A program made the position numbers and the translations under genes. A stretch of DNA of 64,000 nucleotides from Thermofilaceae archaeon (lineage in GTDB: Archaea; Thermoproteota; Thermoprotei; Thermofilales; Thermofilaceae): assembly GCA_038861545.1 (NCBI GenBank), contig JAWCCZ010000004.1, positions 189,182 through 253,181 on the forward strand, written 5' to 3'. The notes below the pieces were generated by a model. It was not told the DNA's origin, made no database searches, and saw only the letters and a program-made list of their open reading frames with translations. Within the stretch, counting starts at the first letter, position 1. Each line of letters begins with the position of its first letter. Below, one piece after another: positions 7,513 through 30,076 of this stretch.

Positions 7513-7821
7513 CTAAGCCGACCCCTTATCTCGGATGATAAACCTGGGGTTGCTTATACGTTCGCTTTTGCATTTCGGACATTTAGATGGCCTCTTCGGT
7601 TTATTTAAGTCCTTGAAGGTATATCCACAACTCAGGCATGAGGGAGGTTCCATTAACAGTATACTGCTAGTACCACGTAGGCTGCGCGCAATGTGGGCAA
7701 GGTCTTCGTAAATGATTTTAATCTCGCTCGGTTTTATGCCTAGCGCACTAGCAATCTGTTTAACATCAAGCGGTTTAGCTGTTAAAGAAAGCAGTTCGAT
7801 AATCTGTTCTCGCCTACTCAA
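7513..7821 (-). CDS. HTH + Zn-ribbon transcriptional regulator (COG3357-like)
   Basis: SRREQII, YEDLAHIARS, CxxCGY...PSKCPKCKSE; TTG start at 7821 after GGAGG. Confidence 0.85.
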   Translation of the reverse strand: MSRREQIIELLSLTAKPLDVKQIASALGIKPSEIKIIYEDLAHIARSLRGTSSILLMEPPSCLSCGYTFKDLNKPKRPSKCPKCKSERISNPRFIIRDKGSA

Positions 7822-7822
7822 G

Positions 7823-8299
7823 TTAACCTCCCTTAGTAAGCTGCAGGATTGCATCCTCTTGATTCAGTTCAACGCCGCAGAAGGAGCAAAACATCCTGAG
7901 AGGTCTTAAAGACTTTATTATAAATTTAGGTTTCACAGGCTCTCTCGGCTGGTTTGTTATACAGTTTGGATTTGCGCACTTTAAAAGCCCTTCTATTACA
8001 TGAGGAACTTGAACTTTGACCTTCTCCGCAACTTCGTAGTCCTTAACGATGTTAATTGTAGCAGAGGGGGCTATCAAGGCTATCTTGCTAACTTGGTCTT
8101 GCCGAAGCTCTACACCTTCGATTTTCACTATATCTTTTCTGCCCAGCTTATGACTAGGCACGTTCATGACTACTGCTATTGTTAACCCCTCGCTGCCGTC
8201 TAATCCAAGTATTTTAAGAACATGAAGCGCCCTGCCAGCGTCTATGTGATCGATTACGGTTCCATTCCTGATTTTACTTACTTTGAGCTCCTTTCCCAT
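7823..8299 (-). CDS. pyrI: aspartate carbamoyltransferase regulatory subunit
   Basis: [26 protein letters not shown]; start moved to ATG 8299. Confidence 0.96.
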
Positions 8300-11144: not shown

Positions 11145-12116
11145 GTGTCCGAAGTTTTGTTAGAAACTAAAAAGGAAGTCTCGCTAGAGAAGCTTGAATC
11201 GCTTACACGGAAAGCTAATGAGTTGAGGGCTAACCTCAACGCATTGTTGAGAGCTATAGAATCTAAGTATTCATCAGATCCCCGCTTCGGCAGCCTTGTC
11301 AAGAACCTATTGAAAGCTATACGTCCCCCTGAACCCATAGACAATAGCTTAATTGTAGCCTCTAATAGTCTTGAAAAGTACGTCACAGAACTTGAACGAG
11401 GAGTGAAAACTCTAACGGAGTACGCAGTAACCTTGGATAAAATTTACAGCGAGCTAGGGAGATTGGAAAACGAGGTAAAGGAACTAGGGAAGTGGGAGGA
11501 ACTGCTGAAAGAACTTGCGCCACATCTGTCAGCAGAAGCCACGAGGTTACTTTCCAGTGCTCATAAACTTATACAACAACCACCTTTCGACGACGTTAAA
11601 AGATTCTCAGACGAGATTTTAATACTCTCTAAGGAGATTAGGAGCCATAATAGAGTCTGTAAATCGGTTTATCTCAATCGTGTAAACGAACTTTTAAGTT
11701 CGGCTTCGCAACTGTATAAAGCTGTTAAAAGGATAGTTAAAGCTCAGCCATTTTCAGAGAGAAGTGAGATCAGATCCTACGAAGAAAGCCTCAGGAAGCT
11801 GGTTGAAAAACTCGAATCAGTTAACCGGAGACCGTTAGAGGAGAAATTAGATCTAACCTTGGTTAAAAGAGAAATCGAAAAAATCGAGAAAGAGATCTCA
11901 AATATCGCTGAGGGCTTGCTTAGCGGCGAGGAAAATTCTCTTATCAAAGAACTGGAAAAACTCACTAGATCGCTAGATAACAGACTTGTCAGTTACTCTA
12001 CGCTACTCGAAGCCCTTTCAAGGAGGACCGACATGTCGGTGGATAAAATAGCGTATATGTTATATGTGCTGGAAAAACGTGGGCTGATCACACTTCAAAT
12101 CCGGTTAAGCTCCTAG
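11145..12116 (+). CDS. long coiled-coil protein with probable C-terminal winged-helix domain
   Basis: E/K/L heptad-rich helices; C-terminal ...LYVLEKRGLITL. Confidence 0.7.
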   Translation: MSEVLLETKKEVSLEKLESLTRKANELRANLNALLRAIESKYSSDPRFGSLVKNLLKAIRPPEPIDNSLIVASNSLEKYVTELERGVKTLTEYAVTLDKIYSELGRLENEVKELGKWEELLKELAPHLSAEATRLLSSAHKLIQQPPFDDVKRFSDEILILSKEIRSHNRVCKSVYLNRVNELLSSASQLYKAVKRIVKAQPFSERSEIRSYEESLRKLVEKLESVNRRPLEEKLDLTLVKREIEKIEKEISNIAEGLLSGEENSLIKELEKLTRSLDNRLVSYSTLLEALSRRTDMSVDKIAYMLYVLEKRGLITLQIRLSS

Positions 12117-15596: not shown

Positions 15597-15959
15597 GTGA
15601 TCATAGCGCTTAAAATTAACGATTTGAAACTCCGTGTTTACTTAACACCATATTTCTCCCCTAAGACTTTCTCCAAGGTGGTGAACCAATTGCCCCTAAA
15701 CCTACATGCACACGTTTACGGGGATACATTAATAGCAGGTACGGGAATAGAGACCGCAGTTGAATCTCATAGGATTTTACTTTACGAAAGAGAACTCGCT
15801 TACTGGCCACCGGCAGCTGCGCTAGTTATCGCTTTAAGAGGTTCTACTAGCTTCGGTAGCCCTGTAAACCCTCTGGGATACATCATCAATGCAGCCGAAG
15901 AATTACGATATTTAAAAGATGGGGAGTCGCTTAGGATCATTCTAGATTTTGACAGTTAA
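15597..15959 (+). CDS. cyclophilin-like fold protein (TM1367/DUF369-like)
   Basis: SPKT...LPL, ELAYWPP, SPVNPLG. Confidence 0.75.
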   Translation: MIIALKINDLKLRVYLTPYFSPKTFSKVVNQLPLNLHAHVYGDTLIAGTGIETAVESHRILLYERELAYWPPAAALVIALRGSTSFGSPVNPLGYIINAAEELRYLKDGESLRIILDFDS

Positions 15960-15999
15960 TTTCAGCAATGCTTTTTGGAGTTTAAAGAGAGGGGTTCTT

Positions 16000-16572
16000 G
16001 TGAGGAGAGTTATATATTTTGTTACAACGAATGAGGGTAAACTACGCGAAGCCCGTATAGTACTTGGAAACTATGGATTTTATGTAGAAGCAGTAAATAC
16101 TAGGAAGCTCGAGCTTCAGTCGGAGAGCTTAGAAGAAGTAGTGAGTTTCGCGGCAGCGCAGCTGATTGGTAAAGTAGTTGACCCGTTTATAGTTGAAGAT
16201 TCAGGGTTGTTTATCCAAAGCCTTAATGGTTTTCCTGGTCCTTACTCCTCTTATGTGTATAAAACACTAGGAGTTAAGGGGGTGCTCAAGTTACTTGAGG
16301 ACATAGAAGACAGGAAAGCCAAGTTTGTGAGCGTAACTGCTTTATGCTTCCAAGGAGAAATACGTACTTTTAGAGGCGAAGTTGAAGGAACTATATCTTT
16401 CGAGGCTAGGGGTTCTACGGGATTCGGTTTCGATCCGATATTTATACCGGCTGGCTACGATTTAACCTTCGCCGAAATGACCCTAAAGTTAAAATGTGAA
16501 ATCTCGCACAGGGCGAAATCGTTATCAGTGTTAGCTAATTATTTACTAGAAATAACCGGTTCTTCTAAGTAA
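16000..16572 (+). CDS. non-canonical purine NTP pyrophosphatase (Ham1/RdgB family)
   Basis: TNEGK, EDSGL, FPGPYS, GFGFDPIF, SHR; start moved to GTG 16000. Confidence 0.95.
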   Translation: MRRVIYFVTTNEGKLREARIVLGNYGFYVEAVNTRKLELQSESLEEVVSFAAAQLIGKVVDPFIVEDSGLFIQSLNGFPGPYSSYVYKTLGVKGVLKLLEDIEDRKAKFVSVTALCFQGEIRTFRGEVEGTISFEARGSTGFGFDPIFIPAGYDLTFAEMTLKLKCEISHRAKSLSVLANYLLEITGSSK

Positions 16573-16640: not shown

Positions 16641-16680
16641 GAAGTATAAATATCGAGAAAAGTAATATAACCCTCAAGAA
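16641..16680 (+). promoter_or_regulatory. two candidate BRE/TATA elements upstream of the structured RNA
   Basis: gaagTATAAATA (16641-16652) and aaaagTAATATAA (16668-16680). Confidence 0.45.
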
Positions 16681-16691
16681 AACTGGATGCA

Positions 16692-16779
16692 GGGGCGAAA
16701 CCGCCGGTGAGCGTGGGGCAGTGCCACCCGCACAGAGGGCGTAAAGCGCTCCACTGGCTTAAGCCGGCGGCGCTTAACC
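16692..16779 (+). ncRNA. GC-rich structured ncRNA candidate closed by a bulge-helix-bulge motif
   Basis: GC island in an AT-rich intergenic region; GG/CC, GGCG/CGCU 4-bp helix, AAA and UAA bulges, CCGCCGG/CCGGCGG inner stem. Confidence 0.65.
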
Positions 16780-16834
16780 CTATTTATAAGTTTCGGGGAG
16801 TAGAATATTTTAAGTTCATAGATCGGCACGCCTA

Positions 16835-17797
16835 TTGAAAGACATGGTCAGGAGTTCTATTTACCGAGCGCTTTCGATTTGTAAGGCTTTAGTTACAAGG
16901 AAGCCTTTAGCCCTCTGCGACATCGGCGATTTGGATGGCTTAACTTGCGCTGTACTTTTCAAAATGAAATACAGGGAAGGCGTGCTGGTCTTAGCGTCAC
17001 CCTCCGATGTGAAAAATAGTAGGATATTGCGTGCTGTGGAATGGACATTCGTGGCCGACTTGCCATGCCCTGGAAAAGCTGTGCTACGAGCTGATCATCA
17101 TGCCACCAACACACCATGTGCTAGGCAAGAGTTTTACGATCCCAGAGCGCCGGCGGCGGCGGTTTTAGCCCTTAAGGCCCTCGGTTTGGAGGACTTTAAA
17201 CAAGCGGAAAGACTAGTTAAGTTAGCTGTCGAAACTGACACGGCAAAAATTGAATCCAATGAAGCCCTTGCGTTAAACGATGCTGTAAAGGGTGCAGGCT
17301 ATCGAGGTAAGCTCAGGCTGGCTGAAATGCTTTCAACTATGGAACTGGAAAAAGTGTTATCTAATGGAGAAGTTAAAAAATGGATAGAAAGGTATAGTAA
17401 GGTAAGGCTTGCAACCGAGAAACTGGCTTCAGAGTTACCAGATGTAGAACATTTCGTCGCAGTTTTCGAAAAAAATATGCAAATCTCTTACAGGTATCTC
17501 TCAATACTTATAGAAAGAAAAGGTGCAAAGTTTACTGCGATTATAGTGCCTAGAAGCTTCTCTATGATCAGAGTATACCTTGGGTCTTCAGATCAAGCTT
17601 ACGATGTATCGATGTTGGCGGGAAAGCTGGGAGGGGGAGGGCACCCATTTGCAGCCGGTGCTTCTATTAGAGGATACCCAGTTTCTAAAATTATTAGAAA
17701 AGTGCTGAAGGAGATAGCTGCATTCACGGGGCAAAAGGAGCTTAACGTATATATGATCGGGGGGCAGGGATTTAGACTAACTCTATTTACTCCTTAA
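16835..17797 (+). CDS. DHH/DHHA1 family phosphoesterase
   Basis: DLDG, ADL, DHH, GGGGHPFAAG. Confidence 0.85.
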   Translation: MKDMVRSSIYRALSICKALVTRKPLALCDIGDLDGLTCAVLFKMKYREGVLVLASPSDVKNSRILRAVEWTFVADLPCPGKAVLRADHHATNTPCARQEFYDPRAPAAAVLALKALGLEDFKQAERLVKLAVETDTAKIESNEALALNDAVKGAGYRGKLRLAEMLSTMELEKVLSNGEVKKWIERYSKVRLATEKLASELPDVEHFVAVFEKNMQISYRYLSILIERKGAKFTAIIVPRSFSMIRVYLGSSDQAYDVSMLAGKLGGGGHPFAAGASIRGYPVSKIIRKVLKEIAAFTGQKELNVYMIGGQGFRLTLFTP

Positions 17798-17802
17798 TTG
17801 CT

Positions 17803-19476
17803 TCACTGGAAAAGTGCCGCTTGAATCTCGCTACCTAATTCTATGTAAATTTTGTCAAGCCAATAACGTGCCGATCGTAAAACTTCGTCGAGGTAAGCTG
17901 TTCGAGCCCTTGAATCTATCCTTGCTAGAAAGCCCATTAATGGTGCCATGTTAAGCGCAGGTAGCTCATGACCCTCATATGCTAACCACCTCCTTTCAAC
18001 TGTTGCTAAAGCTTCTACTGTAGCACTTCCCTCTAACACTCGTTTGACCGCTTCCAGATCCTCGATAAGCAGCAACTGAGGTACAAGCACACTGGTTAGG
18101 AGCTTAGGTTTGGATACATGGCCGGAGACCACTTTTATTAGTCTCCTCCGAAGCTTTCTGTATAATTCTTCATTAGGTTCCAGCATGTTCAGTGCTTCGA
18201 ATAACTGTTGTGGAGGTTCAGAGAACGCAGAAGCACGCTTCAATAATTCTAGGAGTTCAATGCGTAGCGATTCGTATTTAAAGAATCCCAGCTTTTCATT
18301 TGCAACCGACTTTACAATTTTTGATGCGTATTCCTTGGCCAATTTAACGGCATCCCACTCGATGTGGTCAATCGTATCTTTATCCGAGTGGTAATAATCA
18401 ATATAATTCCACATGGAATGAATGGTAAGTGCTGGAACACCAATCCTACTAAAGGAGAAACTGTCGAAATAGGCTGAATCGAGTTCATATACCTTACCAG
18501 GACCCAATAGCTCTTTCACCGCGTCGCGATATTCAGGACCACTCGCGCTAATGATTAAAGGTTTACGCACAGGCAAATCCAAATTGACGACTGCTACAAT
18601 GTCGTTAAGTTCGCCTTGCTTCTCTGCAAATTCCACATATTTGCGGGATCCCCAAGACCAATACCATGCACTGTAGCCTGGCGCACCATATTCTTCAGCG
18701 CCAAAAGCCATGAATCCTATGTCACGCTGGTAGGCCATTTCGTCTGCCAGCAGTAGAAGCAGTGCAACGCCAACCGCATCATCAGCAGCACCGCTAAGCC
18801 AGTGATCATAGTGAGCAGTAAGAAGCACACTCGGTTCACCGTTTACTACTATCACATTACTTGATTCAGCATCCTTTACATATTCAGTCTTTACGCTTAA
18901 TTGAGCATAATGGACACGATCGTCGAGAAACGATAAAGCTGACTCGCGCTTGATGGTCACTGCTGGTATGGGGGCAGGCACGTTAGGGCCCTCTAAATGG
19001 CTCGGCCAATAATTTATCACGATTCTACGAAGCACATCTGCAGCGAAATCATAGAATACAACTCCCAGAGCTCCTGCTTCCACCAACATTGTGTACTGGG
19101 ATGCTATAAAGTCAGGGTCTTCTGGAATCATTCCAGTAAGTGCTATTTTACCTTGTACTTTTGAAAGGTTTAGGCGGGAACCTACGCCAGCGTGCACAAG
19201 CTCTCCTTCGATATAACCGCTTGGTGAGTTGGGCATCGCAATAGCTTGTACGTGCTTCGCATCGACTAGCAGTTCCACTTCTTTTTCTAACCAGCTAACG
19301 CAGGTAAACCTTTGAACTTCAGCGCTTAAGCCTAGGTTCTCAAATTCCTCGGCTAACCATGTTGATAAAGCTTGTTCCGCACGCGTTCCTGGCGGAGCTT
19401 CACCATGTGCTGTTATTTCCGAGATTTTTTGCTTTAAGAAGCTAAAATTGAACACAGGGCTGTGCTTCAAGTACAC
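17803..19476 (-). CDS. M28 family aminopeptidase with PA domain
   Basis: AHYDHW, GAADDAVG, AEEYG, YHSDKD. Confidence 0.9.
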   Translation of the reverse strand: MYLKHSPVFNFSFLKQKISEITAHGEAPPGTRAEQALSTWLAEEFENLGLSAEVQRFTCVSWLEKEVELLVDAKHVQAIAMPNSPSGYIEGELVHAGVGSRLNLSKVQGKIALTGMIPEDPDFIASQYTMLVEAGALGVVFYDFAADVLRRIVINYWPSHLEGPNVPAPIPAVTIKRESALSFLDDRVHYAQLSVKTEYVKDAESSNVIVVNGEPSVLLTAHYDHWLSGAADDAVGVALLLLLADEMAYQRDIGFMAFGAEEYGAPGYSAWYWSWGSRKYVEFAEKQGELNDIVAVVNLDLPVRKPLIISASGPEYRDAVKELLGPGKVYELDSAYFDSFSFSRIGVPALTIHSMWNYIDYYHSDKDTIDHIEWDAVKLAKEYASKIVKSVANEKLGFFKYESLRIELLELLKRASAFSEPPQQLFEALNMLEPNEELYRKLRRRLIKVVSGHVSKPKLLTSVLVPQLLLIEDLEAVKRVLEGSATVEALATVERRWLAYEGHELPALNMAPLMGFLARIDSRARTAYLDEVLRSARYWLDKIYIELGSEIQAALFQ

Positions 19477-29973: not shown

Positions 29974-30076
29974 GCCCCGGTAGCTCAGCCTGGTTAGAGC
30001 GCCGGCCTCGTAAGCATGGGGCACAGCCGAGGACCAAGTCAGCCGGAGGACCCGGGTTCAAACCCCGGCCGGGGCT
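29974..30076 (+). tRNA. tRNA-Thr(CGU) with a 28-nt intron (30013-30040 if at 37/38); CCA not encoded
   Basis: Acceptor GCCCCGG/CCGGGGC, D stem GCTC/GAGC, anticodon stem CCGGC/GCCGG with CT-CGT-A, T arm CCGGG-TTCAAAC-CCCGG. Confidence 0.93.

Follow-up and report, generated by a model that had tools for sequence, protein, structure and literature searches.

A conserved RNA element bounded by a bulge-helix-bulge motif ahead of a DHH/DHHA1 phosphoesterase gene in Thermofilaceae, a candidate for excision as a small circular RNA

In two genera of the heat-loving Thermofilaceae, a structured RNA element lies directly ahead of a gene encoding a DHH/DHHA1 phosphoesterase. The ends of this element fold into a bulge-helix-bulge (BHB), the motif cut by the archaeal splicing endonuclease (EndA), while its interior combines covarying helices with an almost invariant core sequence. 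The element is thus a candidate new family of non-coding RNA (ncRNA). The reading that best fits the comparative evidence, to which a probability of about 0.5 is given, is that the BHB-bounded RNA would be excised from the leader of the DHH mRNA and circularised. Such a product would be the second case of its kind in a 5′ leader, in another phylum than the first, and would show BHB excision to be a more general route to small circular RNAs and to leader trimming.

Locus, structure, and conservation of the element

The element was found in a stretch of 64,000 nucleotides (the window) from a Thermofilaceae metagenome-assembled genome of 1.63 Mb in 12 contigs (G000). Within an AT-rich spacer between the Ham1/RdgB and DHH/DHHA1 genes, positions 16692-16780 form a GC-rich island that holds the parts listed in Table 1. 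The best solved relatives of the DHH protein are the TM1595 phosphodiesterase (E 1.3e-8) and NrnA. A stretch of 35 nt inside the Ham1 gene (16419-16453) is matched with 4 mismatches by far deeper contigs in all four sequencing runs compared; this is probably a conserved motif from the genes of other organisms and not a feature of the locus.

Table 1. Features of the element and its surroundings, numbered from the first letter of the window (g1 and g9, the two genera with the element; G000 and G001, genomes of g1).
Feature	Position	Strand	Remarks
Ham1/RdgB XTP/dITP diphosphatase gene	15949..16572	+	Pfam and NCBIfam; constant upstream neighbour
TATA box ATATAA, the element's own promoter (predicted)	16665..16670	+	AT-rich box aligned in all homologues
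BHB outer helix, 5′ strand GG	16692..16693	+	pairs with CC 16778-79
BHB central 4-bp helix, 5′ strand GGCG	16694..16697	+	pairs with CGCU 16771-74
5′ bulge AAA	16698..16700	+	predicted EndA cut after 16699
Inner stem, 5′ strand	16701..16708	+	8 bp, 100% paired in 11 sequences
Core 21-mer GUGGGGCAGUGCCACCCGCAC	16713..16733	+	P2 5′ strand and P3 hairpin, loop CACCC
Purine-rich single-stranded junction and variable loop, ending in GC	16734..16747	+	unpaired in consensus fold
P2 3′ strand GCUCCAC	16748..16754	+	7 bp with 16713-19, 100% paired
Inner stem, 3′ strand	16763..16770	+	covaries with 16701-08
BHB central helix, 3′ strand CGCU	16771..16774	+	pairs with GGCG 16694-97
3′ bulge UAA	16775..16777	+	predicted EndA cut after 16776
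BHB outer helix, 3′ strand CC	16778..16779	+	pairs with GG 16692-93
Predicted excised/circularised RNA, 77 nt	16700..16776	+	inferred from BHB geometry
Second TATA-like box TTTATAA	16783..16789	+	genus g1 only; conserved in G000 and G001
DHH/DHHA1 phosphoesterase gene (NrnA / TM1595-like)	16844..17797	+	Pfam DHHA1; constant downstream neighbour

The central helix of the BHB consists of three G-C pairs and one G.U pair. Above it, the inner stem is formed by CCGCCGG (16701-07) and CCGGCGG (16764-70) and is lengthened by one U.G pair (16708/16763). The P3 hairpin has 4-5 bp. In the junction that follows the core, the AGG within an SD-like GAGGR and the terminal GC are invariant, while the remainder varies. 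The preliminary description of the locus had placed the outer, central, and inner helices and both bulges exactly where they are found here, and its 77-nt product closed by the loop CGCUUAA follows geometrically from cutting after the second nucleotide of each bulge; the predicted circle folds as a rod closed by that loop. RNAfold on the + strand recovered an identical base structure. The assignment to the + strand alone is likewise borne out, since the homologues contain many G.U pairs that would become A.C mismatches on the - strand. The fold energy itself is ordinary for the base composition (z = -1.75), with 13 of 200 shuffles folding equally well. An alternative apical fold, pairing CCC with GGG and GC with GC, was rejected because G-to-A changes in genomes G015 and G009 leave it uncompensated.

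Homologues were sought by BLASTN, by exact-pattern scans of genome and metagenome collections, and with a covariance model (R1). In total, 11 distinct homologous sequences were recovered, one copy per genome, from the two genera g1 and g9 only. The element occurs in 7 of the 120 genomes of the class and in metagenomic variants, and the covariance model found no homologue beyond g1 and g9 in those 120 genomes. Exact matches to the core 21-mer in this context came from Thermofilaceae only, in the genome and metagenome collections alike, and viral contigs gave no match to the 21-mer. Gene order is the same around all homologues: Ham1, the element, the DHH gene and then, on the opposite strand, a gene for an M28 peptidase. 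In other Thermofilaceae genera, the DHH orthologue lies behind a different gene and has a short plain leader without the element. The element is therefore best described from these comparisons as a clade-specific, promoter-proximal module ahead of one gene.

Across the 11 sequences, 98% of the structure cells are paired and six pairs have changed on both sides; the observed covariation score was reached by none of 500 shuffles. Three double-compensated positions lie in the inner stem, where C-G has been replaced by U-A and G-C by A-U, and variation in P2 is limited to changes from G-C to G.U. The 21-mer GUGGGGCAGUGCCACCCGCAC is identical in all homologues save for one A/U position. Meanwhile, the flanking intergenic DNA cannot be aligned between the genera, and the DHH proteins are 57-60% identical. 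A conserved structure and an invariant core that persist despite diverged flanks mark the element as a functional structured RNA. The invariant core further suggests sequence-specific binding of a protein or of another RNA.

BHB geometry, promoter, and relation to the DHH leader

BHB-shaped motifs were counted over the whole genome of G000 against a mirror-image control, in which the bulges lie 5′ instead of 3′ of the central helix while hairpin content and composition are kept. Under loose criteria, there were 9811 BHB motifs and 10008 mirror-image motifs; under strict criteria, there were 4 and 3, respectively, with the present locus among the 4. Judged within one genome, the BHB shape is thus at chance level, and it is conservation that exceeds chance. 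Since the motif shows no genome-wide enrichment over its mirror image, the evidence for it has to come from comparison between genomes.

This comparison gives a consistent picture. The strict hBHBh′ form, with 3-nt bulges on opposite strands, each 3′ of a 4-bp helix, and flanking helices of at least 2 bp (about 1 bp in the metagenomic variant L044), occurs at the homologous place in five of six species (G000, G001, G015, G009, and G012), and the same 3-nt/4-bp/3-nt geometry is seen in the metagenomic variants. The 5′ bulge is always 3 nt long although its letters may be AAA, AGA, GAA, or GUA, and the 3′ bulge is 3 nt long in most homologues, where it reads UAA, UGA, AGC, AAA, ACU, or AUC. The central helix stays at 4 bp through compensated changes (GGCG/CGCU, CGCG/CGCG, GGCG/CGCC, and GGCG/CGUC), its outermost pair being G.U, G-C, or C-G. 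The inner helix covaries among the homologues at a length of 8-11 bp, the outer helix has 2 bp in G000 and G001 and 3-6 bp in g9, and the predicted excised length remains at 77-81 nt. Two exceptions were found: a G.G mismatch leaves three of the four central pairs in the sixth species, G019, and in L044 the outer helix is reduced as noted above. Covariation of the BHB between the Ham1 and DHH genes of related genomes, which the preliminary description had named as a check, is accordingly present over two genera. The retention of bulge size and spacing without retention of the letters is what a splicing endonuclease would need, and it would not be usual for a ligand pocket.

The enzymes needed for such processing are present in the host. 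G000 encodes two genes of the EndA family (PF01974, 109 and 48 bits) and one RtcB gene (586 bits). The two EndA-family proteins are of the crenarchaeal alpha/beta type, which tolerates relaxed motifs.

The TATA-like box that had been noted upstream of the GC-rich island is confirmed as ATATAA in G000, and in all homologues the aligned box precedes the first G of the outer helix by 27-29 nt. In the tRNA genes of G000, an AT-rich box precedes the 5′ end of the tRNA by a modal 31 nt (28-34). By this spacing alone, transcription is predicted to start at about 16691-16695, at the base of the hairpin. The predicted start falls on the 2-bp outer helix or within 1-3 nt of it, so that the helix may be clipped or incomplete in the RNA, and here the excision model is at its weakest. 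A census of the promoter motif (TATA followed by CCC) returned 259 matches and was too degenerate to inform. A search of public sequencing runs for the locus turned up one metatranscriptome and seven DNA runs from hot springs. The metatranscriptome, the sole RNA run found and available as contigs, covers 17033-17252 inside the DHH gene and not the element.

The RNA had been described as free-standing, which does not hold, as every homologue is immediately followed by the same DHH/DHHA1 gene. With start codons set by aligning the orthologous DHH proteins, the ATG was found 14-17 nt after the BHB outer helix in the lineages of G009, G015, and G019. There, it is preceded by an SD-like GGGUG or GGGGA, and the spacer is GC-rich and contains no AT-rich box. 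An ATG so close leaves no space for a promoter in between, so one transcript would contain both the element and the mRNA. Judging from the arrangement of the sequence, the element must then form the 5′ leader of the DHH mRNA in these three lineages, with transcription driven by the TATA box of the element itself. In G000 and G001 the role as a leader is ambiguous, for the second box, TTTATAA, could be a separate promoter. This box is missing from the GC-rich short leaders of g9, and in g1 it may be either such a promoter or a piece of a weak T-rich terminator. Elsewhere the ATG is farther from the element: the spacer has 63 nt in the G012 group as well as in g1 and reaches about 200 nt in L044. 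The 3′ end of the 16S rRNA was not found in G000 with a conserved probe.

Several smaller observations concern these spacers. Between G000 and G001, the 63-nt spacer (16780-16843) is about 85% identical, while the spacer sequence ahead of the TATA box of the element has diverged much further; constraint seems to act on the downstream leader or second promoter as well. A leader segment, GCGCTAAACCCTTAGCCCCCTC, is common to the G012 group (L011 and L047-L049) and L044 with their spacers of 63 and about 200 nt, and may be a second conserved leader element. In L003, the locus of G015, the core 9-mer GUGCCACCC is repeated right before the DHH ATG (GGGUGCCACCCAUG), about 20 nt after the element. In G015 only, the 3′ strand of the inner stem may, according to the predicted fold, pair instead with the first codons of the gene (CUCGCCGCCG).

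Predicted excision and alternative explanations

In the proposed mechanism, an RNA of about 88 nt would be transcribed from the element's own TATA promoter, starting at or beside the base of the long irregular hairpin. The heterotetrameric splicing endonuclease would cut within both 3-nt bulges, after 16699 and after 16776, and RtcB would circularise the 77-nt piece by ligating its ends, with the predicted junction leading from GGCGGCGCUUA into ACCGCCGGUG (16776 to 16700). This circle would carry the invariant apical domain, composed of P2, the P3 hairpin with its CACCC loop, and the GAGG-rich junction. Because the DHH gene follows the element directly, the same cut would strip nearly the entire structured leader from the DHH mRNA. 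What is left would be a short SD-bearing leader that either begins with a 5′-OH or has been joined again to a 5′ exon of about 8 nt. More tentatively, and with less than even odds, the element may found a new family of small circular ncRNAs in g1 and g9, made by excision of the tRNA type. The apical domain might then work in trans, perhaps as a binding site for a protein or the ribosome, while the same cut would mature the DHH mRNA. If true, this RNA gene would have a dual output, which has no described counterpart in archaea.

Several points weigh against excision. In a single genome the BHB geometry is no commoner than its mirror image, the 2-bp outer helix is possibly incomplete at the predicted start, and the G.G mismatch of G019 and the outer helix of about 1 bp in L044 depart from the motif. 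In addition, the fold is not unusually stable, and the conserved bulges could serve some other ligand or protein. A spliced mini-ORF beginning at the ATG at 16687 was rejected, as this ATG is ACG in G001 and is absent in g9; in g9, the 5′ exon has no start codon that shares the reading frame of the DHH gene.

The strongest alternative, a possibility on the unlikely side, is that the element stays uncut and regulates the DHH mRNA in cis as its leader. It might be an aptamer of the riboswitch kind, an autoregulatory site bound by a protein, or a 5′ stabiliser, and its bulged base would belong to the functional fold and resemble a BHB without being one. The presence of the same gene downstream in all 11 sequences would be explained in this way, as would the direct junction of the element with SD and ATG in three lineages. 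An aptamer would also suit a single-copy element in which invariant loop and junction nucleotides are set between covarying stems, and the CACCC loop of P3 is complementary to the GGGUG SD of G009 and G015. However, this complementarity is missing in g1, G019, and G012, the predicted folds show no sequestration of the SD in the leaders that were checked, and no Rfam riboswitch or leader family matched. No conserved expression platform linking an aptamer to the SD, the start codon, or a terminator was found, as no alternative pairing of the SD is conserved. The distance to the start codon (14-17, 63, or about 200 nt) also fits poorly with an uncut regulatory leader; because spacer length varies and conserved alternative SD pairing is absent, an autonomous excisable module would suit the data better than a switch coupled to the SD. 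The free variation of the bulge letters at constant bulge size and 4-bp spacing, as required by EndA, speaks against an uncut leader as well.

It is unlikely that the element is instead an independent stable sRNA, acting in trans by way of the invariant apical domain. Such an sRNA would be a primary transcript left unprocessed by EndA; in g1 it would terminate at the T-rich stretch, and in g9 transcription would continue into the DHH gene. A TATA box at a fixed distance, resembling the tRNA promoters of the genome, would have the transcript start at the base of the hairpin, and both the invariant 21-mer and the T-rich sequence with the second TATA-like box downstream of the element in g1 are compatible with such an sRNA. 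Yet, in g9 there is neither a T-run terminator nor a promoter between the element and the ATG, and an unprocessed sRNA leaves the exact 3/4/3 staggered geometry of the bulges unexplained.

There is a slight chance that a known RNA has been disguised here: a tRNA in permuted or split form, a fragment of RNase P RNA or SRP RNA, or a guide RNA of the C/D or H/ACA type. Thermofilum is noted for permuted and multi-intron tRNAs, and ARAGORN misses several tRNA species in G000. Here, however, the BHB junction lies outside an 8-bp stem and not within a tRNA body. ARAGORN found no tRNA or tmRNA in the window, searched as linear sequence, or in the triplicated circle, and RNase P RNA and SRP RNA are each encoded at full length elsewhere, on contig C9. 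The absence of tRNA or rRNA exons and of C/D boxes, which had been stated from the sequence of G000, is borne out, and for tRNA it extends to the permuted circle. Alignments read by eye held no conserved C/D, H/ACA (ACA box), K-turn, or hammerhead motif. Rfam searches of the linear window and six homologous loci, at gathering thresholds and at E<=10, gave scattered chance matches with no recurring family, the best being 19.6 bits against a cut-off of 114 bits (BSnc120); the element, as had been supposed, matches no known family. The least probable reading sees the element as functionless, either a GC-rich hairpin that arose by chance or a decaying relic, such as what is left of a tRNA gene or an intron. 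It could appeal to the ordinary stability of the fold and to the frequency of BHB-shaped motifs by chance, but conservation already makes it very unlikely: the 21-mer has stayed invariant and changes in the stems have been compensated between genera with DHH proteins only 57-60% identical and flanks that cannot be aligned.

Comparison with known systems and other RNA genes of the genome

If excision is taken as the preferred reading, the nearest precedent by analogy is the intron in the 5′ UTR of HVO_1309 in Haloferax volcanii. This BHB intron of 46 nt lies in a 5′ UTR of 192 nt, is circular in vivo, and is cut by EndA in vitro (Schwarz et al. 2020, PMC7714728). As of 2020, it and the cbf5 intron were the only substrates of the archaeal splicing endonuclease on record other than tRNA and rRNA (PMC7714728). 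In both HVO_1309 and the Thermofilaceae locus, a BHB lies in the leader of a protein-coding mRNA, and that leader is conserved among relatives. Whereas the HVO_1309 piece has been excised by EndA and found as a circle, excision in Thermofilaceae is predicted from sequence. The Thermofilaceae element further differs in that its 77-81 nt make up almost the whole leader, in that it begins at the predicted transcription start with a 5′ exon of about 8 nt, and in that it has an invariant structured interior and belongs to the phylum Thermoproteota. The strongly conserved interior and the very short 5′ exon are the features by which the element stands out.

In the cbf5 pre-mRNA of Crenarchaeota, a BHB intron is likewise found in a crenarchaeal mRNA. 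However, the cbf5 intron interrupts the coding frame, while here the 5′ exon holds no start codon and the ORF follows the element. The processing stems of archaeal pre-16S and pre-23S rRNA offer another likeness, as an RNA bounded by a BHB of its own flanks is cut from a longer transcript, as is predicted here. In pre-rRNA, the piece cut out is circularised, and its flanks are discarded or ligated. In contrast to the rRNA circles, which are intermediates that are reopened, a 77-nt circle would be the product in Thermofilaceae, with an mRNA as the downstream partner. The permuted SRP RNA of Thermoproteus and the permuted tRNAs of Thermofilum pendens, both from related Thermoproteota, also involve BHB-dependent circularisation of an RNA that is not an intron, but in these cases circularisation restores a known RNA, and none is recognisable in the present element. 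The conserved interior recalls the paradigm of rRNA and permuted SRP RNA, in which a functional RNA is cut from its flanks. As a compact substrate of about 90 nt with natural covariation, the element also lends itself to testing in the biochemistry of EndA and RtcB at high temperature.

Other RNA genes were seen in G000 during the analysis. At 29974-30076 (+) of the window lies an intron-containing tRNA gene, which scores 57.4 bits with the Rfam tRNA model and is read as tRNA-Thr CGU by ARAGORN when introns are allowed. It is missed by ARAGORN under default settings, and a promoter box stands 29 nt upstream of its 5′ end. Three near-identical tRNA genes, on contig C3 at 11984-12079 (-) and on contig C5 at 19337-19432 (+) and 107796-107889 (-), are reported by ARAGORN as 'tRNA-???'. 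They differ only around the anticodon loop, where CCG, UCU, and UCG can be read by eye, and they are probably isoacceptors of tRNA-Arg. All three share the insert CCCGTTAACGGGGCGCAAG, which resembles a non-canonical intron. On contig C9, the genes for RNase P RNA (7540-7866, -) and SRP RNA (7953-8265, +) stand back to back with about 90 nt between them. The SRP RNA is matched over its full length with 84.6 bits, under the Rfam cut-off of 96.5 bits.
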